Below, in pieces: positions 4,051 to 59,130 of a stretch of DNA of 64,000 nt (the stretch's first letter is position 1; each line of letters starts with the position of its first letter). Below the pieces are notes generated by a model. The model did not search any database. It was given only the letters and a program-made list of their open reading frames with translations, and was not told the origin of the DNA. A program made the position numbers and the translations under genes. This stretch comes from an uncultured Lentimicrobiaceae bacterium. Lineage in GTDB: Bacteria > Bacteroidota > Bacteroidia > Bacteroidales > WCHB1-69. The stretch is from contig CAZRCF010000001.1 in NCBI GenBank assembly GCA_964598505.1, positions 150,543 through 214,542 on the forward strand. The letters run 5' to 3'.

Positions 4051-4085
4051 ATTATATAATTTCTATATATATAATTTGATTAATA
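4051..4085 (-). promoter_or_regulatory. promoter-like element with invariant ATATAGAAAT block (copy 1)
   Basis: Minus strand reads ATATAGAAAT-TA-TATAAT. The decamer core is at 4059-4068. It sits between a terminator hairpin and the next gene. Confidence 0.55.
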
Positions 4086-8442: not shown

Positions 8443-8477
8443 CATATATTATTTCTATATGAAATTTAACAATATTA
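8443..8477 (-). promoter_or_regulatory. promoter-like element with ATATAGAAAT block (copy 2)
   Basis: Minus strand reads ATATAGAAAT-AA-TATATG. The core is at 8451-8460, directly downstream of the terminator at 8480-8516. Confidence 0.55.
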
Positions 8478-9052: not shown

Positions 9053-9469
9053 CTATGGGTGAAATAAATATATTCTATTTTTTCCTTGTGGTGGTTCAAA
9101 TCTATCAAAATGAAACCAATTGACTTTTGCTTCTATTCGATTAATAAACTTTAATAATGGATTATCTTGATTAGCAAGAACCTTTTGTCTTACTTCTTCT
9201 GGTGTCATATCTTGAACATCAACATCAAATCCTTTTCCTTTGCGATGTGGACTTTTTGGCGCACCAACGGTACACCATCCAGGTCTATATCCTCTAAAAG
9301 AAAATGTACCACCTTCATGCCAGTTATTACAAGTAACTGGGACACCTATAAATTCTCTAAAATCATCTAACATGGTAAGCGCAGTATCATCAAATAATTG
9401 CCAGCATTTTATACCAAATTGATCAAATGTTCTTTTATCTACAATTTCTTCAAGCTTAAAATATTGCAT
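9053..9469 (-). CDS. peptidase M15 family endolysin (L-Ala-D-Glu / D-Ala-D-Ala peptidase fold)
   Basis: SPHRKGKGFDVDV and WFHFD match the H-x6-D ... H zinc triad pattern. Start set at MQYFKLEE (AAGGAG upstream), which avoids overlap with the tRNA. Confidence 0.75.
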   Translation of the reverse strand: MQYFKLEEIVDKRTFDQFGIKCWQLFDDTALTMLDDFREFIGVPVTCNNWHEGGTFSFRGYRPGWCTVGAPKSPHRKGKGFDVDVQDMTPEEVRQKVLANQDNPLLKFINRIEAKVNWFHFDRFEPPQGKNRIYLFHP

Positions 9470-9509
9470 TCCAATCAATCTCCTTATTTTTATTAATATA
9501 TTCTTTAAT

Positions 9510-9597
9510 TGGCGGAGAGAACAGGATTTGAACCTGTGAATCTTTCGATTGCCAGTTTTCAAGACTGGTTCCATAAGCCAAACTCGGACACCTCTCC
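9510..9597 (-). tRNA. tRNA-Ser (anticodon UGA), type II with long variable arm, encoded CCA
   Basis: Hand-folded cloverleaf. Acceptor GGAGAGG/TCTCTCC, anticodon arm CCAGT-CTTGAAA-ACTGG, variable stem AATC-GAAA-GATT, T arm CAGG-TTCAAAT-CCTG. Confidence 0.9.
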
Positions 9598-13233: not shown

Positions 13234-13704
13234 TTAATATCTTAATGTTACTTGTGAACCATCTGAAGAACTTTCTGTTACGACTATTCTATTATATTTT
13301 TTAGGATCTTCTTTTTTAGATGTTAAATACTCATTTATTGATTTACTCATATTAACATTAAATTCTCCGGTAATGTTACTTTCAGGATCACCATAGAATT
13401 TTTTACAAAGTTCAATAGTTTCAAATCCGATAGTAATTACTCTATCAGGTAAGTTAATATTTTGATAGACTCTTGGAGTCTTGCAATTATTAATGTTTAA
13501 AGTTAAAATTTCAGGTATCCAATCATGTGGAATTGTTTTTAACAATCCTGTGCGCTCATATATTTTTTCAGGATCAATTCCATATTGTTCAAATAATTGC
13601 TCATGAAGCATTTTTACTTTCTTTCTGGGTTGGTCCGGCGACATATTACTTTTGTCGGACATATCCAAACCATCCATACTTGTAATTGTTATATTTTTTG
13701 CCAT
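13234..13704 (-). CDS. hypothetical protein (156 aa)
   Basis: ORF track; AAGGAGAAAAT SD upstream. Confidence 0.6.
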   Translation of the reverse strand: MAKNITITSMDGLDMSDKSNMSPDQPRKKVKMLHEQLFEQYGIDPEKIYERTGLLKTIPHDWIPEILTLNINNCKTPRVYQNINLPDRVITIGFETIELCKKFYGDPESNITGEFNVNMSKSINEYLTSKKEDPKKYNRIVVTESSSDGSQVTLRY

Positions 13705-13735
13705 TATTATATTTTCTCCTTAAGAAAAACAAACT

Positions 13736-13765
13736 AATAGAGGGAAGATTTCTCTCCCCTCTATT
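13736..13765 (-). terminator. intrinsic terminator
   Basis: Stem AATAGAGGG/CCCTCTATT followed on the minus strand by AGTTTGTTTTTC. Confidence 0.65.
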
Positions 13766-13770
13766 TAATT

Positions 13771-14496
13771 TTATTTCGTATCGGCAGCTACACGAGTAGC
13801 TACAAGATTTAAATCAACAGGACATCTATCCATTAATGTTGCACCTAATCTACTAGAAATATCATTTGCTAGAGATGCTTCAACAGGATCTAACATTTCA
13901 AGTCGGGATTTATAGTTAAACTTTTGAACTGGTTTAGTATTCCGGACCTTCCATTTTGAACTTTCAAAAGCTCGATATTCTGTTCGTTTAAAGAAACTTC
14001 CATTAACACAATTCACTACAAATTCTTGAACTGATTTGCCGTTAAAGAAATGGCATCCAGTCGGTTTGTAATTTTCTGTGCCAAATTTATTACAAATATT
14101 TTTTACAGCTTCAGCTGACGCCGAAGTCCTACAACTGTTTGAGATATGAATGTGATTAATATCTTGTGGAGAAACTAAAATTTTCATTTCATCCAGATGA
14201 TTACGAATCATCCAATCTTCAAGATCGAAATTTTCATGAATATTTTCCCGAACATCTTCTAAAAATTGAACTTCTAGAACTCGCTGTCCAGCGAATTTAT
14301 CAATAGTTTCAACACCTTGTTTTGGAATTTTTCCAAATTCTGTTTCTCTAATTTTATTTAATTGTTTTAATATTTCATTATTATCTGGATCTCTAAAATT
14401 AAAAGTTTTTGAAAAATGCTGAAAAACAGCATCCTGTAAGAAACCTGTGTTGTCTCTTGCCACCGTCTTAATCATTAATACATTCAAATCTCTCAT
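13771..14496 (-). CDS. hypothetical protein (241 aa)
   Basis: ORF track; AGGGAGGC SD upstream. Confidence 0.6.
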   Translation of the reverse strand: MRDLNVLMIKTVARDNTGFLQDAVFQHFSKTFNFRDPDNNEILKQLNKIRETEFGKIPKQGVETIDKFAGQRVLEVQFLEDVRENIHENFDLEDWMIRNHLDEMKILVSPQDINHIHISNSCRTSASAEAVKNICNKFGTENYKPTGCHFFNGKSVQEFVVNCVNGSFFKRTEYRAFESSKWKVRNTKPVQKFNYKSRLEMLDPVEASLANDISSRLGATLMDRCPVDLNLVATRVAADTK

Positions 14497-14553
14497 TCTA
14501 CAAATTGCCTCCCTTTCTTAAATTAAAAACTGGTTTAAAAAACCTCAAAATTA

Positions 14554-14576
14554 AAATGATCCACGATAGATCATTT
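14554..14576 (-). promoter_or_regulatory. leader hairpin plus U-tract between promoter copy 3 and gene 13771..14496
   Basis: AAATGATC-TATCGTG-GATCATTT followed by TAATTTTGAGGTTTTTT on the minus strand. Confidence 0.4.
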
Positions 14577-14580
14577 CTTC

Positions 14581-14615
14581 ATTCATATTATTTCTATATA
14601 AAAACCTTGAATATA
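14581..14615 (-). promoter_or_regulatory. promoter-like element with ATATAGAAAT block (copy 3)
   Basis: Minus strand reads TTCAAGGTTTTT-ATATAGAAAT-AA-TATGAA. The core is at 14590-14599. Near-identical to copy 4 over about 28 bp. Confidence 0.55.
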
Positions 14616-14629
14616 AAAAATGATAAATG

Positions 14630-14876
14630 TGAAAAAATTGGACCACGTCTGCCATATCACTGAGACTATATTGATTGCAGTCTACCAAACTCAATCATCC
14701 CACAGACCTTATGCCAATTCTTTCCACATATCAAAATAAGGATAACGACCAATAACACAGTAGGATTTAATACCTACAAGTCGGCGAACCGTCTAAAGAT
14801 GTTACTCACATATAGAGATGCAGCAGAGTTGTTCCATTTCACTGGCTCCACATCAACTCCATGTGTTATTGATCCT
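14630..14876 (-). ncRNA. candidate promoter-driven structured non-coding RNA (about 245 nt)
   Basis: ORF-free and visibly GC-richer than its flanks. It starts just downstream of promoter copy 4. A 10-bp closing helix CAATAACACA/TGTGTTATTG encloses several hairpins (GGAGTTG/CAACTCT, a UUCG loop, GTAGG..CCTAC). Confidence 0.4.
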
Positions 14877-14880
14877 CTCT

Positions 14881-14915
14881 AAAAATATTATTTCTATATA
14901 AAAATCTTGAAAATT
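14881..14915 (-). promoter_or_regulatory. promoter-like element with ATATAGAAAT block (copy 4)
   Basis: Minus strand reads TTCAAGATTTTT-ATATAGAAAT-AA-TATTTT. The core is at 14890-14899. It abuts the stop codon of the beta-like gene. Confidence 0.5.
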
Positions 14916-14919
14916 AAAA

Positions 14920-17900
14920 TTAAGTTATATTCAATCCCATACCTAAAATATATAAATTGAATATGTCTTTTGTTCCACCAGTTTTTGAGGATTCAGGAAT
15001 AGAAGGCATATCTCCTGTTTCCATAATAGAATTATACATTTCTCTTTTTACTCGATGTTCATCACTTCTTGGACCAAGTAATTCAGATATAATATTATTA
15101 GCATTATATGTAAGAAATGAATAAATATCAAGACCCGCAATACTTTGTCCACCACCAACATTTTTTCCTTGGGTTGGTTGACGAGTAAGTCCTGTAAATC
15201 TACCTGTTCCTCTTACATTAGAATACACATCTGAATAATGCTCCAAAAACATATAATATGATATACCTACAGGAACAGGAACGTCTGTCCAACGATCAAT
15301 TTCTGGAATATATACCTTTTCTTCTAAAGGAATCTTTAAGAATTCCGCCGCTGAACGAATGCTCTTAAAATCAATATCTTCAAAAGGTTCTACAATACAA
15401 TATAAATTAATTTTATCATCTTTTATAGCTTGTCTTAATTTATTTCCAGAATAACTATTGACATTTTCTGCAACTTGTTTTGCTATCTTTTTTGGTCCAA
15501 CAATATTGTATAAATCAATAATAAACTTAGCTAATTTATCATTAGGAATTTTTGGATCTTCTGCCATTATTTCGAGCTTTTTATTTGCATTGAAGAATAT
15601 TTTTCCAAGGTATAATTCCTTTATCATTGCTACATTCTTGCGTCCCAAAATTGAAATTGGGGAGATAAAGATATCTATCTTTTCTGTAAATTCTCCTTTC
15701 GGAGCTGGATCAAGAAGTTTACTAAGAACTCCTTTTGCTCCAAAACGATTACTTAGCTTATCACCTATATTAACACTTTTTAATCTCTTAATATAATAAA
15801 CAATTCTAGAACCTACAAAAATATTTCCTTTAAGTTTATGATCACCAATGTTTATAAAACTTAAATCCATATTATCTGTAATTGAAAGTTGTTTATCTTT
15901 ATCTTTTATAACGGATGCGAGCTTTGCAATAACTTGTTTTTGTTCTTTTACAAGATTTGAATGAAATGACATAAGTTGTTTATCAGCAGAATTCTTATTA
16001 TTAATGAATACTTTGATATCAACAATTTCACCCTCTGGAGCTAATAATTTGATACTTTTAGAACCCGTTGAGAAAATGTCTTTTGGGGATTCAGAATCAT
16101 CATCTTCTATATCTAAATTTGTCGAATCAAGATATTCATCCAAACTATCTTCATATGAAAATTCAACTAATATATCCCCACTTTTAACATGTTTACCTTT
16201 TTCTATTTCAAGATTTATAATTTTTGTATTTGGGGGAATAATAGCTTGAACTTCTTCAACACTATCTGTCAGTGTTTGATCTGCAAGTTCTTTTGAAATA
16301 ATATAACTATCTTCATGATTCAATCCCATATAATTAAATAAAGCTATATTAATATTTTTACCGGCACAATATGTTCCAGCTTGATTAAAATTCTTTGTAA
16401 AAGCAATAGGTTGATTTGCTTTAAATTTCTCATCAATTCCAAGAGTATTCATTTCAAGAGAAATGTAAGATCCTCTTTTAGTTCTACTCATTCTTGGAAC
16501 TATATCAAAAATATCAATTGTTCCATCTTTATATTTCACAGTAAGTGTTTTATTTTTATCGACATCTGTGATGATTCCATCTTGTTTTGCTCTATGTATA
16601 AATCTTGGTGATGCTAATTGAGGAACAATAAATTCTGCACCAGTACAAACTAATGGTTGTTCAGAATCACTAATTGGAGTGGTTTGATTTGAATGTGTTC
16701 TTGCAAGAGTAAGACGATCACTATCGACTTGATTTTGAAATGGTGTTAAAGATTCATCTAACGCCAGTGTTTGCCATCCAGATAATTGTGTAATATCTTT
16801 AGCTCCATATGAACCATATTTATTTATTATGACCGGGGTAAGCGTGTGATGTGTAGTAAGTCCGACATCCACATACTCTGGCGTACTGACTGCTCCCATG
16901 GTACCATATTGGCTAGGGTGAATATTACGATGTTCTTTTTTGAAACTTTTTCTTGAAGGTACACCGCCTTTACCACCTTTAGTTACTCTACTACTTAACA
17001 TTATTTCCGTTATAGGAGCAACTGGCTCTGTATTCTGAAGAACCCCAGCATCAGTTAATAAACTATTAATAATATAATCTGGGTCTAAAAATACAGCAGC
17101 TTGAGGATCACCTTCTGTAATACGTTTACGATAAGTATTGTGAGAAAGTTTAATTACTTTATAAACTATATTAAGAATAATTTCACTTAATCTTGTTCTA
17201 TAAATTTTAAGATCAGATAAAGAATTCATTTGTTTATTTAGTAATTGATCAACTGCAACTTTTGAAGAAAGCTCTGTTAAATTTGTTGGCATATTTTCAA
17301 ATTGTAAAAGCTCTTTGGTAATTGGATCAACAAAATTCTCACTATTTAATCTAAGAAGAATAATTGATCTTGTACCATATGTTTGAATAATATAATTATA
17401 GATTTCCTGAGGATCATTTAAATCTTTAATTGGTTCCTTTAGTTTAATAGTTGATAATGCATTAACTATTACTCTTTGTTTTAAATTTTCAGGAGTAATC
17501 TTTAAAAATTTGCCATCGGCTTGAGCTACATAAAAAACTCCAGGTTCTGGAGTATCAGTTTCAACAACTTCATAATTTATACCATAATCATTAAGAGTTG
17601 CTAGAAGACCTTTTTGACTCCAAAGATAAAGTATCAATGGCATTTTTATTGCTCCCATATAAATCCATATATATGGAAGAGCTTTTTTAGTTTTTGTTAA
17701 ATTGTCAACCGGATTAGCTGTATGAATTTTATCTAATATAGTATCAAATAAAAACTCATATTTATTTTGTTTTAATAATTCTTTAGTTTCTACATCTTGT
17801 AATCTACCGGATTCAGTATCTGTAGTTATATTTTTATCTTTAGAACTATAAACGCTCTCGCCGGTAAAATAAATAATACTACCATCATTAAATTCACATG

Positions 17901-19614
17901 AGTTTTCGTCTCGTTTTTTGATAAGTTTTGGATATCTAATTTCAGCATATTTTGTAATTTCTGTAAGATCTGTTGGATTAAATTTTGAATTAGCTAATCC
18001 AACTCTTACAATACCGTAATTAGAAATCATACGAACTTCATTCTTATCTGTTTTTGTTACCGGACGAAGAAACTGTTGATTACTCATTATATATGATTTT
18101 CCATGAAGTTTGAAGTATTTCTCATTGACTGGAGAAGGAACTTTTAATTCGACAACATATGGTTCTTTTTTACCACCATTCATATTTTGAAGAGTAACTT
18201 TATAATTAATAAATCTATTTGAATTATCATCTTCAACGGAAGATTCGATCTTTTTTATTTTAATTGGGTATTCAGTTCCAATGGATTCTAATGAATTAAA
18301 CAGTTTTGATACATTTTCATGAATAGCAGTTTCAAATTCAAATTTCTGACGATGTTGACCAGTTGTGTATTTTAAATCAATAATCTTACTAGGATTAATA
18401 ATATTATTTGATTCGGAAATATTTAAATCATTTTTATAATAATCAATTTGTTTTAATTTATTAAATAATAAATTTGGTTTATGAAGATACTCATCTGGAA
18501 CAATATCTGAACCTGAAATTGAATAATTAATAGCTCTCAATACTAAATCCTCAGCTTGTTCCTGATTTGGTTTAGTTTTATTATTTTCAATATATTTATT
18601 CAAAGCTATTTGAACATTAGCAACAATATCAGGATCTGTAATTTTATGAGATTTTAAAGCTTTTCTTAATTCTTCTTGATTAAGTTTAACTCGAATTCCG
18701 GAAGTATCTGGATCTTTGTCAGCTACTAGAGTTGAAGTTTGAAGTGATTTAACAATTCCAGAAATGAAAGAAGGTTCTTTATTTTCTTCAGTTGTATCTT
18801 CATTTTCTTGTTCATTTTCTGGTTTATTTATTGAACCATCTTCTGTTTCTCCTGCTATAGCATTTTCCTTAGATTTGTTAATATCTTCTATTTCCGTATT
18901 TACTTCAATATATTGTTTTAATTTTAAAAGATTAGCAACAACTAATTGAGTTTCAGATTTATCTATATCAAATATTGGAATAGTTACTTCCTGACAATCT
19001 GATATAAGACTAAATTCATCAAAGAATTTAATAGATTTTAAATCATCAGCTTTGATGAATGATCTAAGATTTAAAAAAATATTATATAATCTTCCACTCT
19101 GGTTCTTAATAAGAAATACCATTTCAACATTGTAATCTTGATTGTTTGATTTAATTTGTTTATATAATGTGGCAAGCTCTTCGAAGAGTTGTCGAACAAC
19201 AGTCTTTTCCGAATATCTTTGCATCATAAATTCTAATGCTTGGCTCCACACTGTTGCATCATAAAAATAATAATTACTTGTTTTATGAGATGTTAATATT
19301 TCTTTCTCAGATTTTTCAATTATTAAACTATTTAAAACTCGTATTTTCTTACCAATTTTTTGATCTGATATATTAGAAGATAGCTTCTTTTTGACATCGA
19401 AAAAGTGAGCTTTGCCGCTAAATTTTCTTTTACCTATTGTAAGAACTTTACTTGGACAAACAAGTCCCATACAATTTGATAATAAGAAATTAGAATTATA
19501 AATTTCTGTAGATATATCAAGATTTGTATCTGGTAACATAATAAATATTGTTTTCTTATCAACATATATTTTTGTTTTTATAACATATGCTGGATGAATT
19601 GAACTATAATTCAT
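14920..19614 (-). CDS. multisubunit RNA polymerase beta-subunit homolog, full-length fused form (1564 aa)
   Basis: Beta motifs in order: IHPSQYG..STPEYVDVGL (CPIETPEG region), TPFQNQVDSDRLTLARTHSNQ (IPFLEHDDANRALMG), NRFGAKGVLSKL (GRHGNKGV), GGGQSIAGLDIYSF (GGQRFGEMEVWAL). Confidence 0.85.
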   Translation of the reverse strand: MNYSSIHPAYVIKTKIYVDKKTIFIMLPDTNLDISTEIYNSNFLLSNCMGLVCPSKVLTIGKRKFSGKAHFFDVKKKLSSNISDQKIGKKIRVLNSLIIEKSEKEILTSHKTSNYYFYDATVWSQALEFMMQRYSEKTVVRQLFEELATLYKQIKSNNQDYNVEMVFLIKNQSGRLYNIFLNLRSFIKADDLKSIKFFDEFSLISDCQEVTIPIFDIDKSETQLVVANLLKLKQYIEVNTEIEDINKSKENAIAGETEDGSINKPENEQENEDTTEENKEPSFISGIVKSLQTSTLVADKDPDTSGIRVKLNQEELRKALKSHKITDPDIVANVQIALNKYIENNKTKPNQEQAEDLVLRAINYSISGSDIVPDEYLHKPNLLFNKLKQIDYYKNDLNISESNNIINPSKIIDLKYTTGQHRQKFEFETAIHENVSKLFNSLESIGTEYPIKIKKIESSVEDDNSNRFINYKVTLQNMNGGKKEPYVVELKVPSPVNEKYFKLHGKSYIMSNQQFLRPVTKTDKNEVRMISNYGIVRVGLANSKFNPTDLTEITKYAEIRYPKLIKKRDENSCEFNDGSIIYFTGESVYSSKDKNITTDTESGRLQDVETKELLKQNKYEFLFDTILDKIHTANPVDNLTKTKKALPYIWIYMGAIKMPLILYLWSQKGLLATLNDYGINYEVVETDTPEPGVFYVAQADGKFLKITPENLKQRVIVNALSTIKLKEPIKDLNDPQEIYNYIIQTYGTRSIILLRLNSENFVDPITKELLQFENMPTNLTELSSKVAVDQLLNKQMNSLSDLKIYRTRLSEIILNIVYKVIKLSHNTYRKRITEGDPQAAVFLDPDYIINSLLTDAGVLQNTEPVAPITEIMLSSRVTKGGKGGVPSRKSFKKEHRNIHPSQYGTMGAVSTPEYVDVGLTTHHTLTPVIINKYGSYGAKDITQLSGWQTLALDESLTPFQNQVDSDRLTLARTHSNQTTPISDSEQPLVCTGAEFIVPQLASPRFIHRAKQDGIITDVDKNKTLTVKYKDGTIDIFDIVPRMSRTKRGSYISLEMNTLGIDEKFKANQPIAFTKNFNQAGTYCAGKNINIALFNYMGLNHEDSYIISKELADQTLTDSVEEVQAIIPPNTKIINLEIEKGKHVKSGDILVEFSYEDSLDEYLDSTNLDIEDDDSESPKDIFSTGSKSIKLLAPEGEIVDIKVFINNKNSADKQLMSFHSNLVKEQKQVIAKLASVIKDKDKQLSITDNMDLSFINIGDHKLKGNIFVGSRIVYYIKRLKSVNIGDKLSNRFGAKGVLSKLLDPAPKGEFTEKIDIFISPISILGRKNVAMIKELYLGKIFFNANKKLEIMAEDPKIPNDKLAKFIIDLYNIVGPKKIAKQVAENVNSYSGNKLRQAIKDDKINLYCIVEPFEDIDFKSIRSAAEFLKIPLEEKVYIPEIDRWTDVPVPVGISYYMFLEHYSDVYSNVRGTGRFTGLTRQPTQGKNVGGGQSIAGLDIYSFLTYNANNIISELLGPRSDEHRVKREMYNSIMETGDMPSIPESSKTGGTKDIFNLYILGMGLNIT

Positions 19615-20509: not shown

Positions 20510-22288
20510 TTAATGATCTTGAGAATAACGTTCAAGAACAATTTTTTCAATAGGATCTAAAGTTGCATCACGATTATCAATTAATCCAACTTTAACAGCT
20601 CTATTAATATTTTCAAAAATAAGAGAAGATAGCCATGAAAGTATATATGGTAATTTCTTTTGACCTACAATTGTTATATTTTTGTAATTAGTTAATCTAG
20701 CTGGTATGGTTAAATCTTCACTGTCTCTAAACATATTTGAAACAATTGCTTCAATGTGTATCATATCAATTCCAGCTAATTTGTCATGAATTGTCATTGT
20801 TAATACTTCTGGATTAGTGATATATTTTGCGCCGCCCTCGAAGAGCCTATCAACTGTTCTTTCATTAAAAGTATCATCATAATAATCTTGTTTTATAATT
20901 ATTTCACCAGGTTCGTAATTCATAGTTATTATATGACCATCTTCTATGACTTCCGCTGGTTTAAATACGTCAACCATGATTGCAAAAGGTAATGTTATAA
21001 AATTAATATCTGGTGATTCACCATATTGAACAGTTAGTACTCCGATTGTTTGATATTTATCTCCACAATCAATTAATGAAATATCATTATATTCCGTATC
21101 ATCTATAGATATACTACATTGTGTTTTTGCAATTATTTCATTCTTTTTAATTTCAAGAATATTATTAAATTGCTTAATATCAATTCCAGCTTTTTTAATC
21201 ATATCAATAAAATCTACTTCTTTTGTATTTATCGAAGATGATTTGTGTCTCATTTTCATCATCGAATTTATACCAATTTGATTTGCTGCTCCACTTGCCA
21301 GTATTCCAATATTAATTGTGTTTAATGTTTTATAAAGATTGCCATAGCAAGTTGGACAAATGCCGGATTTTGAAATACAATATAATGGAGATCTTAATTT
21401 AATCTTTTTATTAATAATTTGATCTGCGGAAATTATGTTTTTAATTGAACCAGATTGTGATACATAATTTCTTTGCAAAAGAAGATCGGCAAGATCTTCA
21501 GTGATAACTAAATCAAATGTTCTTTTTGTTCCACAATCTTCGTTTTTAACATCTATCTGTAATCCTGCGTTTGCTTGAACCATTTTTCTAGTAAGATATC
21601 CTGGATGTGCTGTTAGAGCAGATCTTATATAAAAGTTTTTACGTGCTTCTGAACCTGCATTATAATAATCTATTTTTCCATAACCAGTGTTTAAACTGGT
21701 TGTAATAGGTCCAAGAAGTTTACCTTCAATATCAATTGCATAACCTTTTGCTACTAATAATGCTCCCCAATCGGAAATAGGATTTCCTTTTGTTCCAGAA
21801 GACATTATATCATTTGCTCTAAATCCTGATTCTTCGAAATATGATAATAACTCTTTTGTAAGTTTTTCAGCTTCTTTTTTAAATTCAACAGGATCAAGTT
21901 TACTTGCTGTTTTTTCAAACTCATCTCGTTTCTTAACCCATTCTGCAGGTGGAACAAACATATCGATTGTAAATGTATTTGGGGAAATACTAGCTAATTT
22001 AAAAGCTTCAGTTTGAAGTTTTGAAACAATATCTACAGCTTCTTCTGTACCATATTTATTATACATTTCAATAATAATTTTATTCATCAGGTTTTGATTA
22101 ACTGGTTCATTTACTAATGGATAATCCGCAGGCAATAATTGATTAAACCATATCCGACCAAGAGTCAGATTAACACTTTTTCCATTAGTCTTTTTTGGAT
22201 GAGAATATGATACTTTTGAAGAAAGTTTTTTCCCATCTTTAATTAAATCATATATATTGTCTGATGTTGAAATTGGTTGTGCCGACAT
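20510..22288 (-). CDS. multisubunit RNA polymerase beta-prime homolog, C-terminal module (bridge helix + trigger loop)
   Basis: SGTKGNPISDWGALLVAKGY (SGARGS..QLAGMRGL), ARKNFYIRSALTAHPGYLTRKMV (bridge helix), EDCGT, GILASGAANQIG..MKMRHKSS (trigger loop region). Confidence 0.8.
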   Translation of the reverse strand: MSAQPISTSDNIYDLIKDGKKLSSKVSYSHPKKTNGKSVNLTLGRIWFNQLLPADYPLVNEPVNQNLMNKIIIEMYNKYGTEEAVDIVSKLQTEAFKLASISPNTFTIDMFVPPAEWVKKRDEFEKTASKLDPVEFKKEAEKLTKELLSYFEESGFRANDIMSSGTKGNPISDWGALLVAKGYAIDIEGKLLGPITTSLNTGYGKIDYYNAGSEARKNFYIRSALTAHPGYLTRKMVQANAGLQIDVKNEDCGTKRTFDLVITEDLADLLLQRNYVSQSGSIKNIISADQIINKKIKLRSPLYCISKSGICPTCYGNLYKTLNTINIGILASGAANQIGINSMMKMRHKSSSINTKEVDFIDMIKKAGIDIKQFNNILEIKKNEIIAKTQCSISIDDTEYNDISLIDCGDKYQTIGVLTVQYGESPDINFITLPFAIMVDVFKPAEVIEDGHIITMNYEPGEIIIKQDYYDDTFNERTVDRLFEGGAKYITNPEVLTMTIHDKLAGIDMIHIEAIVSNMFRDSEDLTIPARLTNYKNITIVGQKKLPYILSWLSSLIFENINRAVKVGLIDNRDATLDPIEKIVLERYSQDH

Positions 22289-22690: not shown

Positions 22691-22766
22691 TGGAGCTGAT
22701 GGAGGGAGTCGAACCCCCGACAGGTTGATTACAAATCAACTACTCTTCCAACTGAGTTACATCAGC
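22691..22766 (-). tRNA. tRNA-Thr (anticodon UGU), encoded CCA
   Basis: Hand-folded 76-nt cloverleaf. Acceptor GCTGATG/CATCAGC, D arm ACTC-AGTTGGAA-GAGT, anticodon arm GTTGA-TTTGTAA-TCAAC, T arm GGGGG-TTCGACT-CCCTC. Confidence 0.88.
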
Positions 22767-25639: not shown

Positions 25640-25668
25640 AGAATAATATTTCTATATAACCCTTGCAA
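25640..25668 (-). promoter_or_regulatory. promoter-like element with ATATAGAAAT block (copy 5)
   Basis: Minus strand reads TTGCAA-GGGTT-ATATAGAAAT-AT-TATTCT (17-nt spacing between hexamers). The core is at 25648-25657. Confidence 0.55.
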
Positions 25669-25818
25669 ATATTAAATTTGTATTTGGTGACACCTATAAA
25701 CACCATTTTTATAAAAGGATGGTCACAAGGACCTCCAACCGACACACAGGTGTATTCCTGGATTCACACATCCAGGGTGGGATTGGGATCGCGCATGAAA
25801 ACAAAGACGCGGAGAGAG
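25669..25818 (-). ncRNA. GC-rich ORF-free structured region (candidate 3'-UTR-derived or independent RNA)
   Basis: Several hairpins: CGCG..CGCG, CTGGAT-GTGTGA-ATCCAG, GGTC-CTTGT-GACC, TGGTG..CACCA. GC is visibly far above the flanks. The only ORF is an implausible plus-strand one. Confidence 0.3.
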
Positions 25819-28196: not shown

Positions 28197-29504
28197 TTAT
28201 TTTGTTGCTGCATAAATTGCCGTTAATGCATCATACTTAATTGTATATGGACATTTATTTGCAGACGTTACAGATGTCCACATTGATTTTGCATATTTCG
28301 GATGCATTTTTGTTTTAGCTTCTTCTTGAGCTTCTTTTGTGAATAAGGCCACTACAGCCATTGCGTCACCATCGAAGTCACCACCAACCCTATCAAGATC
28401 TAGTGGATTTAATGACATTGTAATACCTTCTCTTTTAACTCTTACGTTGGCTGCTAGCCATGAGTCTCTATTTTCGACGGGATCGCGTTTGTATATAATA
28501 ACTTTATCTTTAACAATATCTTCGGCTACATGCACAAAATAATCAACCATGTCTTCTGGAATGATTTCAGGTTTGTCTATTGCCGCAGCAAAAAGTTTCT
28601 TTAAATCAATAACATCAATATCAACATCTGATTTTAATAAATATTGAATTGACTTTAACATATTTCTGTCTCTTTTTAAAATATGATTTATTGCGAATGG
28701 TTCAAATAGTTTTAATACAACTGCCCAATGTAATCCAACTGTGCCCAAGGGCAACGTGTTATCCGTTGTAATAATTAATCTTCCAGAGTAGTCAACTACT
28801 TTTCTCATTAACCCACCACGAATCAAACCAGATTTACCTTTAAGACGATTCTTAATCCAATTATTAATTTCTAAAACAGTTTTCTGAATTTGTTCTATAA
28901 TTGGTCTTTTAATTTCATCAGGAAGAGTTTTAAAATCTGATCCAAGTGTATTTGTATGTCTAATTAAATTTGTATATAATTCGGACAGATCTGAAAAATT
29001 AACAAGTGTTTTATTCGTAGTTTTTGAGATAGATAGATCTCTGATTCCTGCCGGTAAAATCAAATATTTATCAATAAATATTTTATCTTTATTGTTTTTT
29101 ATAAAAGCAACATTTTTTGGTCTATTCTTTTTGAAATTATCAAGATCTATTTTCTTAAATATCGATATAAAATAATCTGTTCCTGAAGAACCTTTTTCTG
29201 AATCTTCAATAAGTACACCTTCTTTATTTACAATGTATTGCGCTTTTGATGTTATAAGTTTAGATATTGAAGGATCTAATCCAGTTATAAGTGAATATGC
29301 TTCAGGATGTATAATTGGAACTTTGAGATTTACATATGCAAATCTTTTCCTACGTTCATTTGATCCAAATTTGCCAAAAATTTCCTCTGAGAATAACCCA
29401 TTTGGATCAGTCTTCTCAAGTTTTTCATATAGCCGAATTGTTGATACCGGCTTGAGCTTATTGTCCTCTATATATTTATCAATATTAAGCAATTCAAGTT
29501 TCAT
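28197..29504 (-). CDS. multisubunit RNA polymerase beta-prime homolog, N-terminal catalytic module
   Basis: LKGKSGLIRGGLMRKVVDYSGRLII ([23 protein letters not shown]) and the catalytic GGDFDGDAMAV (NADFDGDQMAV). Confidence 0.85.
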   Translation of the reverse strand: MKLELLNIDKYIEDNKLKPVSTIRLYEKLEKTDPNGLFSEEIFGKFGSNERRKRFAYVNLKVPIIHPEAYSLITGLDPSISKLITSKAQYIVNKEGVLIEDSEKGSSGTDYFISIFKKIDLDNFKKNRPKNVAFIKNNKDKIFIDKYLILPAGIRDLSISKTTNKTLVNFSDLSELYTNLIRHTNTLGSDFKTLPDEIKRPIIEQIQKTVLEINNWIKNRLKGKSGLIRGGLMRKVVDYSGRLIITTDNTLPLGTVGLHWAVVLKLFEPFAINHILKRDRNMLKSIQYLLKSDVDIDVIDLKKLFAAAIDKPEIIPEDMVDYFVHVAEDIVKDKVIIYKRDPVENRDSWLAANVRVKREGITMSLNPLDLDRVGGDFDGDAMAVVALFTKEAQEEAKTKMHPKYAKSMWTSVTSANKCPYTIKYDALTAIYAATK

Positions 29505-41092: not shown

Positions 41093-41127
41093 AATATATA
41101 ATTTCTATATGAAAATTGAAAATATAA
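41093..41127 (-). promoter_or_regulatory. promoter-like element with ATATAGAAAT block (copy 6)
   Basis: Minus strand reads TTTCAA-TTTTC-ATATAGAAAT-TA-TATATT. The core is at 41101-41110. Confidence 0.5.
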
Positions 41128-50699: not shown

Positions 50700-52658
50700 T
50701 TAAGATTTCAAAAATTGAAGACTCACATCCACCACCTGTTTGGTTCGACTTTTAATCGGTCGATTTTCTGGAAGATCATATTTACCATCCACTACAAGTT
50801 GTCTAACTAAATCTTTCTTTCCAGCTGTCCAATCACTTTTTACAGATAAAATTTCTTTGACTGCTAGATCACACCCGTGTGCTAACATACTTTCTAACTC
50901 CATTTGACCAACTCTACTTCCACCACCTCTTGCTCTACCTTTGGTTGGTTGTTTAGTTATACTTTTGACACTACCAAAATCTCGAGCATTTATAATTTTA
51001 GAAACTAATTTTGATAATTTCTGAATATAAATCGGGGCACATAGGATATTTTTTAAATAAACATCTTCATCTGGAAATTGTGTTTCTAATTTTAATTTTT
51101 GTTTGATAAATTTAATCGTTTCTTTTTTAATTAAAACTGTCTCTTTATAATTGATTGTATTTTTTACTAATGTTTTTATGTCAACTTCTGCAAAAGAAGG
51201 AGATTCCACAAATAAATTTGATTGATTGATATTTTCAACAAATTGATTTCTAAATTCATCATTATCTAAATTATCAATAATTTCATTTTTGACTCTTAAA
51301 TAATATTTATCATCAATATGTTTTAAAACAGATTCGTTTAACCAAGTTATTATTTCTTTTGAATTTTCGGGATTTGTTCTAATATGTTCGTCACAATACA
51401 TAACTGATTTTCCAACTAATGCTTCCAATAGTTGCCCAAGATTCTGCCGACTAAATACACTAAAAGGATTATAAATTAAATCAATTTGTTTATTTGAAGT
51501 TGTTGCAATTGGTCGCAATTCATCTGGAAGAATCAAACTGACTATTCCTTTTGCAGCATATCTGTTTGCAATTTTGTCACCGATTACTGTTGGACAATCT
51601 TTTGATATTTCTAATTCAATAAGGTAACATAAATTATTAAGTCCTATTTCTCCTCTTGATCCTTTTGTTTTTTCAATATACATATAATATTTTTGAAGAA
51701 TATATCCAACATATTGTGAATTAAAACATTTTAGAAGATCACTTCTTGTTTGTACAACAAAAGTTCCATATTTTAAATATAATTGATCCATCATATTTTC
51801 TAATTTTTGATCGATCATTACTTGTGTTCCTAGTTTTTTGAATTTATGAATTTTGATACCTGAAATAGTACCATTTTCAACTTTTGTTTTAATTTTATCA
51901 ATTGCAAATTTACCATCTCCACAGAATCCCATATTCAATAAATCTGATAATGACATATTCTTCAATGACATTTGAACTTTATTTTTTAGATCTGAATAAT
52001 TTGCTGTCGAACTATCTCTTGGAGCAATCAAACAACATACTATATCATCCTTAATTTTTTGTCCAATTGCAGGAAAATATACATATGAATCTTGATAATC
52101 TTTATAAAATTCTTGCATTAATGTATATTCATATATCGGAATATACACTTTATCAACTTGTGAATATCTAGCTTTGTCCGCTAAACTTTCAGAAATCGTA
52201 ATAGCGTCCTCGTGATTGTATCCGAAAAATGGCATGTATGCTGTAAAAACATTATATCCATAGCTCGGAACATGACCTATGAAACAATCATAATTTGCTA
52301 AAATATCCCCTCTTTTAAATTTAGATTTATTTGGAATCACATATCTCAGTTTTGTTCCAAAAGAACCTGTTGTCTTTTTTATCGGCGGAAGACTTATATC
52401 GACAACTTTATTAAGATTTGAATATTGAACAATTAATAAATCTTGATTTTTATATAATACCTCTCCATCATCCTTAGCTAATACCACTCCCATCTTAGAG
52501 GAATTTGTTACAGTATAATAATCAGATCCAATAACATATGGAATTTCAGTATTCAAGCTTGTTAATGCTTGTTGAATTTGTTTCGCACTCATCGAAGCTC
52601 TTGTACTGTCAGTTGAGCTAAGAAATGGAATAGTATTTAAATTTACACTTACAATCAT
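50700..52658 (-). CDS. multisubunit RNA polymerase beta homolog, C-terminal module (split gene)
   Basis: Begins IVSVNLNTIPFLSSTDSTRASMSAKQIQQA ([30 protein letters not shown]). Also NRYAAKGIVS and GGGSRVGQMELESMLAHGC. Confidence 0.85.
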   Translation of the reverse strand: MIVSVNLNTIPFLSSTDSTRASMSAKQIQQALTSLNTEIPYVIGSDYYTVTNSSKMGVVLAKDDGEVLYKNQDLLIVQYSNLNKVVDISLPPIKKTTGSFGTKLRYVIPNKSKFKRGDILANYDCFIGHVPSYGYNVFTAYMPFFGYNHEDAITISESLADKARYSQVDKVYIPIYEYTLMQEFYKDYQDSYVYFPAIGQKIKDDIVCCLIAPRDSSTANYSDLKNKVQMSLKNMSLSDLLNMGFCGDGKFAIDKIKTKVENGTISGIKIHKFKKLGTQVMIDQKLENMMDQLYLKYGTFVVQTRSDLLKCFNSQYVGYILQKYYMYIEKTKGSRGEIGLNNLCYLIELEISKDCPTVIGDKIANRYAAKGIVSLILPDELRPIATTSNKQIDLIYNPFSVFSRQNLGQLLEALVGKSVMYCDEHIRTNPENSKEIITWLNESVLKHIDDKYYLRVKNEIIDNLDNDEFRNQFVENINQSNLFVESPSFAEVDIKTLVKNTINYKETVLIKKETIKFIKQKLKLETQFPDEDVYLKNILCAPIYIQKLSKLVSKIINARDFGSVKSITKQPTKGRARGGGSRVGQMELESMLAHGCDLAVKEILSVKSDWTAGKKDLVRQLVVDGKYDLPENRPIKSRTKQVVDVSLQFLKS

Positions 52659-53362: not shown

Positions 53363-53391
53363 ATTATACTATTTCTATATATAAATTGTAA
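53363..53391 (-). promoter_or_regulatory. promoter-like element with ATATAGAAAT block (copy 7), best sigma-70-like fit
   Basis: Minus strand reads TTACAA-(17 nt including ATATAGAAAT)-TATAAT. The core is at 53371-53380. Confidence 0.6.
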
Positions 53392-53417
53392 TTATTAGAA
53401 ATTACTTTATTGAAATT

Positions 53418-59096: not shown

Positions 59097-59130
59097 AGAA
59101 TATAATTTCTATATGAAATATGAAAATAAA
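59097..59130 (-). promoter_or_regulatory. promoter-like element with ATATAGAAAT block (copy 8)
   Basis: Minus strand reads ATATAGAAAT-TA-TATTCT. The core is at 59105-59114. Downstream of the terminator at 59141-59171. A small leader hairpin AACGA..TCGTT plus T-run follows. Confidence 0.55.

Follow-up and report, generated by a model that had tools for sequence, protein, structure and literature searches.

The locus

We describe a predicted structured RNA of about 265 nt, together with the twin promoter repeats that bracket it, in a stretch of 64,000 nt from contig CAZRCF010000001.1 of GenBank assembly GCA_964598505.1 (positions 150,543 to 214,542, forward strand), which is filed under an uncultured Lentimicrobiaceae bacterium; the DNA belongs to a metagenome contig of 205 kb, k141_123413 of ENA ERZ27262927. 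This whole 64-kb stretch is called the window below, and coordinates count from its first letter. Every long open reading frame (ORF) or gene of the window is carried by the minus strand, and among the encoded functions are RNA polymerase beta, helicases, an NAD-dependent ligase and a class II ribonucleotide reductase. The RNA unit occupies an intergenic slot between the RNA polymerase beta-like gene and a gene for a protein of 241 amino acids (aa). In the order in which the gene strand is read, the features of the locus are the following.

14920..19614, minus strand: gene of a 1564-aa RNA polymerase beta-like protein, immediately ahead of the slot
14885..14911, minus strand: putative promoter copy 1, TTCAAGATTTTTATATAGAAATAATAT, which would drive the RNA unit
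14615..14879, minus strand: predicted non-coding RNA, ~265 nt, its 3' end placed in the U run 14615-14620
14747..14875, minus strand: D1, a predicted five-way junction in which a closing helix of 12-14 bp (14862-14875 with 14747-14760; …CAAUAACACA/UGUGUUAUUG…) surrounds four hairpins
~14812-14861, 14799-14811, 14779-14794 and 14760-14777, minus strand: the four D1 hairpins, H1, H2 (loop GAGUA), H3 (UUCG loop) and H4 (GUAGG-UAUUAAAU-CCUAC), respectively
14622..14732, minus strand: D2, a predicted 111-nt imperfect hairpin followed by AUUUUUU (U6 run 14615-14620), presumed terminator and 3' stabiliser
14585..14611, minus strand: putative promoter copy 2, TTCAAGGTTTTTATATAGAAATAATAT, serving the 241-aa gene
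14546..14574, minus strand: leader hairpin AUGAUC-UAUCGUG-GAUCAU (14556-14574) and the following UUUAAUUUU, recognised by fold and conservation
13771..14496, minus strand: gene of the 241-aa protein, with a Shine-Dalgarno sequence GGGAGG at 14508-14513

The 1564-aa protein is matched by Pfam RNA_pol_Rpb2_6 (1.3e-20) and Rpb2_3 and by PHROG 3148, "RNA polymerase beta subunit" (7e-58). Its orthologs in metagenomes are 47-93% identical to it at the aa level, and its identity to the proteins of cultured jumbo phages (Fusobacterium, Listeria, Staphylococcus, Yersinia phiR1-37) is about 24%. The window contains two beta-like genes, this fused form and a 652-aa fragment of C-terminal type, and at least two beta'-like fragments (14920-19614, 20510-22288, 28197-29504 and 50700-52658, all on the minus strand); judged by sequence, two beta/beta' sets would fit the virion and non-virion multisubunit polymerases of phiKZ/AR9-type phages. 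This polymerase gene content, and the low identity to cultured jumbo phages, therefore indicate an uncultured phage of the phiKZ/AR9 type that encodes its own multisubunit polymerases.

Promoter repeats on both sides of the unit

The preliminary description of this DNA, which was drawn up from the letters alone, spoke of twin near-identical promoter copies around a non-coding unit, and the twin repeats are as it said. The 27-nt sequence TTCAAG[A/G]TTTTTATATAGAAATAATAT occurs exactly twice in the window, on the minus strand in both cases, in copies that are identical at 26 of 27 positions and spaced exactly 300 nt apart; in shuffled sequence the expected number of matches is 0.00, even when up to 3 mismatches are allowed. 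Similarity between the copies extends over 35 nt at 91% identity. The shorter core ATATAGAAAT has eight copies in the window, all of them intergenic and on the gene strand, with none on the plus strand, and in related loci the motif is likewise confined to the gene strand. The six core copies away from the slot (4054-4080, 8446-8472, 25647-25672, 41096-41122, 53366-53392 and 59105-59130, minus strand) each lie ahead of a gene. A few bases past the AT-rich promoter element there is a conserved (T/A)TTAGAG.

A reading of the repeat as a sigma-70 promoter was tried and rejected: the motif is not called by a sigma-70 scan, and its invariant bases would fall in the spacer. The early promoters of the virion RNA polymerases of AR9/phiKZ-type phages have the form AAATATATATTAT-N6-G+1 (PMC5312081). 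The repeats resemble them in their extended conserved AT-rich element, in the conserved purine start a few bases further on, and in the presence of two split beta/beta' sets in the phage; the sequence here is TTTTTATATAGAAATAATAT instead, and the polymerases are only ~24% identical to those of cultured jumbo phages. By this analogy the repeat would be a phage-specific promoter, with copy 1 probably of the early virion-polymerase class, and the "consensus-N6-G+1" rule would place the start of the RNA unit near G14879. The motif and its start region point to a likely promoter of a so far uncharacterised group of multisubunit polymerases in phages.

A pattern that combines promoter and start region, ATATAGAAAYNNTWTNNTTAGAG, was matched 8 times in viral sequences and 49 times in genomes, nearly always by chance and inside genes of unrelated organisms, and none of the matches resembles any cassette by BLASTN. 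A single match, L084 on a contig of a Spirochaetota metagenome-assembled genome, precedes an ordinary gene and seems to be a true promoter of this kind.

Composition and predicted fold of the RNA unit

The unit (14615-14879) has a GC content of 38.5%, and D1 reaches 41.9%, as compared to a mean of 29.2% (sd 3.5%) for 265-nt segments across the window, of which only 0.9% reach the value of the unit. The remaining intergenic DNA has 8-25% GC. The segment had been called GC-rich, and that term holds only relative to this AT-rich genome.

Folded as RNA of the minus strand, the unit has a minimum free energy of -81 kcal/mol (z -3.6; 0 of 200 shuffles as stable), as against -57.6 kcal/mol for the plus strand. 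In the predicted structure the RNA is almost entirely base-paired and falls into the D1 junction and the long D2 hairpin, with z values of -3.0 and -4.3, respectively. The 10-bp closing helix, the UUCG-loop hairpin and the GTAGG-N8-CCTAC hairpin that had been picked out from the letters are all present in the minimum-free-energy fold. The last of these (H4) had been likened to a T-arm, and only its existence as a hairpin stands: its loop, the 8-nt UAUUAAAU, differs from the 7-nt T-loop consensus UUCRANY, it gets no score from any tRNA model, and a tRNA-like reading of the unit was dropped as no tRNA match appears at E<=10.

Homology and covariation

Relatives were gathered from metagenomes by their RNA polymerase beta and 241-aa genes, not by RNA sequence. 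Among them a single homolog of the unit was found, namely cassette B of the locus L045 (772-1042), which is 88% identical; separate folding of the two sequences leads to the same architecture, with z values in L045 of -4.2 for D1 and -5.9 for D2. For a test of pairing, the structure was predicted from the window sequence alone and the L045 sequence was then fitted onto it. Of 85 pairs, 84 are kept, 6 by full compensation and 5 by wobble-compatible half changes, and one is broken. This outcome involves 27 substitutions, 19 of them in paired columns; when 27 substitutions are placed at random, a mean of 13 pairs are broken and 0.36 compensated, and none of 20,000 trials was as extreme (P<5e-5). 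RNAalifold, run on the two sequences together, gives 7 compensatory and 0 broken among 92 pairs. The two sequences also differ by a 1-nt indel in H1.

Compensation is seen in the closing helix (CA/UG to UG/CA), H1, H3 (G-C to C-G) and H4 (two pairs), and the basal stem of D2 contributes one more, together with four G-U/G-C half changes. The many G-U pairs and the G-U/G-C half changes imply that the gene strand is the RNA strand. On this comparison the RNA fold is under purifying selection, which bears out the original idea of a structured RNA and adds the covariation that had been proposed as a check on it, with 6-7 compensated and at most 1 broken pair among 85-92 in this one homolog. At the apex of D2, window and L045 agree over 78 nt at 98.7% identity, as against 80% DNA identity for the neighbouring protein gene; such near-identity suggests that the sequence of the apex as well as its structure is constrained, or else that there was a recent exchange. 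A covariance model of D1, built from the two sequences and run on 330 kb of related loci, recovered only these two.

Known families, coding and antisense potential

Searches for known RNA families, which the preliminary description had recommended, were negative for the unit. With Rfam 15 (4227 models) the whole window yields only two tRNAs, both outside the unit, and at E<=10 the interval 14400-15000 gives sub-threshold chance matches only, the best at 25 bits against a 60-bit cutoff. The cassettes of 16 related loci match no Rfam family at gathering or permissive thresholds, and ARAGORN detects no tRNA or tmRNA in the unit or in any cassette of 17 loci. A group I intron was also considered and rejected, the unit being intergenic, past a stop codon, and free of any RF00028 match at E<=10. 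BLASTN of 13700-15700 against 50,697 phage records returned no match, five exact patterns (four from D1/D2 and one from a cassette C hairpin) had 0 matches in IMG/VR and GTDB genomes, and an IMG/VR search by way of the 241-aa gene found no relatives.

The segment had further been described as free of ORFs, which is not literally so: ORFs of 25-39 aa occur on both strands inside the unit, and a listed 47-aa ORF overlaps its edge. None of them is credible as a gene: a Shine-Dalgarno sequence is missing ahead of every small ORF in the unit, in contrast to the GGAGG found at the phage's real genes. The strongest contender is a 30-aa sense ORF with a hydrophobic N-terminus (14666-14758); it starts within the closing helix, and relative to L045 it shows one indel-associated replacement, three other aa changes and 0 synonymous changes. 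A 39-aa antisense ORF (14620-14739) shows six replacements and again 0 synonymous changes. As both ORFs compared have only non-synonymous differences, the pattern is the opposite of a coding signature, and a conserved small ORF, which had been named as something that would speak against the RNA, was thus not seen. With respect to antisense action, the unit has no more k-mers complementary to other parts of the window than shuffled sequence has, and the window yields no antisense target.

The slot in related phages

In about 40 loci with beta-gene orthologs (47-93% aa identity), we read the DNA from the beta stop codon to the next gene. The first promoter copy is always found within ~20 nt of the beta stop codon in the loci read, and what follows it is highly variable. 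Empty sites, with one promoter copy and then the leader hairpin and gene, are present in L004, L005 and L010 (102-nt gap) and also in L014, L018, L029, L030 and L032; these are the relatives with a single promoter copy and no insert whose existence the preliminary description had asked about. Copy 1 of the window is identical at 27 of 27 positions to the single copy at the empty sites of L004, L005 and L010. Twin promoters surround inserts in L002, L006, L007/L034/L015, L011, L012, L013, L020, L023, L043/L044 and L104/L105, and about eight structured inserts, unrelated to one another, account for the occupied sites. Most of the longer inserts fold well, and all inserts end in a T run right before the next promoter copy; as with D2, this T run follows a hairpin. 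Those of defined length or structure are listed here.

L006: 307 nt, a hairpin and a large junction ending in GTAGGTTCAAATCCTAC beside an acceptor-like helix
L002: 180 nt, with a further 130-nt structured stretch upstream
L104 and L105: ~150 nt each
L020, and L007, L034 and L015: ~110 nt
L013: 67 nt, containing GGTTCGAACC
L011 and L023: plain perfect hairpins with a T run

In the L006 insert, GGTTCAAATCC adjoins the acceptor-like helix, yet the insert scores only 15 bits as a tRNA. L043 and L044 have one cassette each of a "family A", recognisable by the motif GCGTGAGGGAAA, which is also present in L020. L045 has four promoter copies and three tandem cassettes, A, B and C, of which B is the homolog described above, and the second hairpin of C is 83% identical to part of the L002 insert. 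An alignment of family A (L043, L044, L020 and L045-A) by MAFFT and RNAalifold was too poor to use. The 241-aa gene has orthologs in L043 (90% aa identity), L044 (86%) and L045 (81%), where it stands behind different RNA cassettes, and more distant homologs (~37%) come after the slot in most relatives. Among further members of the cluster, the contig of P0005, closest in its beta gene (93%), ends inside the gene, that of P0072 starts inside the 241-aa gene, and P0001 has a 435-nt gap that suggests an occupied slot.

Two irregular arrangements were seen in the slot itself. In L002 (7708-7838) and identically in L003 (5673-5803), an extra structured stretch of 130 nt, closed by AATTGTGCGAAT…ATTCGCACAATT, lies between the beta stop codon and copy 1; it lacks its own promoter and may be a 3' untranslated region element or a cassette stripped of its promoter. 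In L021 (7645-7700), two promoter copies stand 28 nt apart with no cargo between them, either as a bare duplication or as the scar of a deleted cassette.

How the cassettes probably move

The promoter copies were compared together with their flanks, 30 nt before and 32 nt after the core. In window copy 1 the upstream half matches the first promoter of L045 (P1, 27/30) and the downstream half its second (P2, 28/32), and in window copy 2 the upstream half matches P3 (27/30) and the downstream half P4 (29/32). Set against the A-B-C array of L045, these chimeric copies mean that only B is present in the window and that its two junctions fall within the promoter repeat. In L004, the empty site reads as the left flank of copy 1 followed directly by the right flank of the final copy. 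Recombination between direct repeats of the promoter yields just such patterns. The mobility of the cassettes is thereby established in part. That the unit is a promoter-bounded cassette is upheld by the relatives; that it was inserted, as had been proposed, is indistinguishable here from its being the remnant of a deletion from a longer array.

In T4-type phages, promoter-early stem-loop (PeSL) cassettes are known (PMC2839356, Arbiol et al. 2010; PMC4122927, Comeau et al. 2014), and their composite promoter/terminator repeats contain the endpoints of indels that distinguish close relatives, implying recombination between the repeats (PMC2839356; PMC4122927). The resemblance to these modules, which had been noted at the outset, gains from the window/L045 breakpoints inside the promoter repeats. 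In both systems short conserved promoter/terminator repeats flank variable cassettes in hyperplastic regions, and at the present locus the T run of the previous unit precedes, and a hairpin follows, every promoter copy. The differences lie in the promoter and in the cargo. The T4 repeat is a sigma-70 early promoter, whereas here it is an AT-rich, phage-specific motif, and the phage encodes multisubunit polymerases of its own; the T4 cargo consists of ORFs, whereas here it is a structured non-coding RNA without a credible ORF; and the cassettes of this clade accumulate at one fixed slot behind the RNA polymerase beta gene. The locus thus shares with PeSL cassettes the flanking promoter repeats and the repeat-internal indel endpoints, and lacks the sigma-70 early promoter and the ORF cargo of T4-type phages. 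Elsewhere in the window, the leaders at ~4068 and ~25657, the two that were read, each have a hairpin and a U-rich tract, so that at least some promoters of this genome form PeSL-like promoter/stem-loop units.

Interpretation

Those checks of the preliminary description that could be made by computation all spoke for its reading. We consider it about 75% probable that the unit is an independently transcribed, probably early, structured non-coding RNA gene, lying in a cassette whose promoter repeats recombine and so allow it to be shuffled. Transcription would begin at copy 1 near G14879, and the transcript would fold into the D1 five-way junction and the long D2 hairpin and end at the U6 run immediately before copy 2, which would in turn drive the 241-aa gene by way of that gene's own conserved leader hairpin. 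Within this clade of phages the unit is one of many alternative RNA cassettes that share the slot behind the beta gene, and homologous recombination between the flanking promoter repeats would allow cassettes to be gained, lost and stacked.

Several points weigh against this account. Two sequence variants of the RNA are known, which makes the covariation a single pairwise comparison, and the near-identity of the D2 apex (98.7%) could stem from recent exchange instead of selection. The promoter class, the start site and termination by the phage polymerase at D2/U6 are inferred. The L045 locus comes from a metagenome contig of 2.5 kb with a chimeric first ORF, and its three-cassette order could in principle be an assembly artefact, although cassette B and its covariation are independent of the order of the array. 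The ORF in question (L045 1-591) joins a GC-richer, unrelated N-terminal part of LamG-like character ("FTLEAWIYPK") to the last ~45 residues of RNA polymerase beta, either as an insertion or fusion in that phage or as a chimeric assembly. The weakest step concerns function. With low confidence, we suggest that the RNA may act in trans as a protein-binding decoy, sponge or scaffold in host takeover or counter-defence; a protein-binding RNA is favoured over an antisense RNA because there is no excess complementarity to the rest of the window, pairing is nearly complete, the apex is invariant and the slot turns over fast.

An attenuator or riboswitch in cis, with D1 as sensor and D2 plus U6 as a terminator controlling read-through into the 241-aa gene, would explain why the layout looks so classic: a long P1-like helix closes a multi-helix junction, and a hairpin with U run and then a gene on the same strand follow. 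The likeness to transcriptional riboswitches ends there. A complete promoter, copy 2, intervenes between D2 and the gene, which also has its own conserved leader hairpin after that copy; cassette and gene vary independently, as the gene (81-90% identical) is found behind other RNA in L043 and L044 and behind three promoter-bearing RNAs in L045; and no riboswitch family matches. We regard control of this kind as unlikely. The hypervariability of the slot and the polymorphism of its cassettes for presence and absence would also suit a selfish or decaying mobile element without benefit to the phage, for example what is left of a homing element or group I intron, or a promoter-targeting repeat resembling a miniature inverted-repeat transposable element (MITE), the more so as relatives have active group I introns and HNH endonuclease genes in the beta gene next to the slot. 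The model RF00028, however, detects the introns of relatives at 79-103 bits and nothing in the unit at E<=10, no ribozyme family matches, and there are no terminal inverted repeats and one copy per window. The compensatory changes show that the fold is selected, although a selfish RNA could need its fold too. A selfish origin is, on balance, quite improbable.

If the insert were no more than a terminator or insulator of the RNA polymerase beta operon, serving only to stop or process upstream transcripts, one would expect inserts like those of L011 and L023, which consist of a single perfect hairpin and T run, and D2 with U6 is itself terminator-like. That role, however, fits poorly with a unit that sits downstream, not upstream, of a promoter copy and that keeps by compensatory change a 129-nt five-way junction unneeded for termination, and relatives with empty sites manage without the unit; we give it very little credence. 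Smaller still is the chance that the 30-aa sense or the 39-aa antisense ORF is a small protein gene or the remnant of one. Both are open in the L045 homolog, but neither has a Shine-Dalgarno sequence like the strong GGAGG of the phage genes, the sense ORF begins within the closing helix, the antisense ORF runs against every gene and promoter of the window, and all the differences are non-synonymous, several of them compensated in the RNA.

The structured RNA gene in a recombining cassette, which we prefer, belongs to kinds that are known, in that both phage small RNA genes and the shuffling of cassettes by promoter repeats have precedents. Stable small RNAs of a large phage are exemplified by the species 1 and 2 RNAs in the tRNA cluster of T4. 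Like these, the unit would be independently expressed (its expression is predicted), highly structured and within 100-300 nt, and tRNA-like T-arm and acceptor features are present in the cassettes of the relatives L006 and L013. The RNA of the window differs in having no tRNA-like score and in having its own promoter and terminator in place of being cut from a tRNA precursor. Candidate structured RNAs have also been catalogued in phage metagenomes (PMC10690425). In the literature we did not find a description of the combination seen here, i.e., a fixed slot behind the beta gene, phage promoter repeats that are not of the sigma-70 type, and structured RNA cargo up to three deep.

What stands out is a clade of uncultured jumbo phages with one fixed slot for interchangeable structured RNAs that have their own promoter copies and lie outside the described RNA families. 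To our knowledge, the shuffled accessory loci of phages carry protein genes. Should these RNAs prove to be made early and to target proteins of the host or the phage, they would constitute a new class of RNA-based accessory functions. A more far-reaching view, which we hold to be doubtful, is that the slot is a swappable early RNA arsenal in which each cassette is a different structured decoy or sponge RNA, some of them tRNA-like, that neutralises a host defence or factor or tunes the phage polymerase; were it true, promoter-repeat recombination would let the clade trade and stack RNAs as other phages trade anti-defence proteins. The succession of promoter, start region and terminator also provides a simple signature by which such RNAs might be found in metagenomes (TATAGAAAT … hairpin … T run … TATAGAAAT).

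The leader hairpin downstream of copy 2

The preliminary description had also seen a hairpin and U tract in the leader of the gene at 13771..14496. The hairpin (14556-14574) is indeed present, and it is kept in 13 loci (window, L002, L004, L007, L010, L013, L020, L023, L030, L034 and L043-L045). Its 8-bp stem has 3-4 pair types at each of positions 2-6 and an invariant C-G at the loop, which is a conserved 7-nt U[G/A]UCG[U/A][G/A] and is followed by UUUAAUUU. It persists in L004 and L020 though the downstream protein there is of a different family. It looks like a binding site or processing signal and not a plain terminator.

Neighbouring genes

The 241-aa protein has no match in Pfam or PHROG. 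It aligns at two separate places to the ~158-aa orthologs of L002 and L013, and these two matches suggest an internally duplicated domain of ~100 aa.

The beta gene of the window is uninterrupted. In relatives it can contain group I introns (Rfam RF00028, 79-103 bits), of which there are one in L034 (5695-5937) and three in L030 (7109-7352, 7410-7626 and 7750-8145), and it is split into two or three ORFs in L044 (150-827), L104 (6561-8503 and 9856-10515) and L105 (9242-9934). The gaps of the split genes hold mostly HNH or His-Me endonuclease genes, and one gap of L104 holds an unannotated 219-aa ORF.

The two tRNA genes of the phage in the window are those for Ser-UGA (9513-9597) and Thr-UGU (22694-22766), both on the minus strand. 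As the tRNA-Ser gene overlaps the 5' end of a listed 173-aa ORF (9053-9574), this ORF probably starts further downstream.

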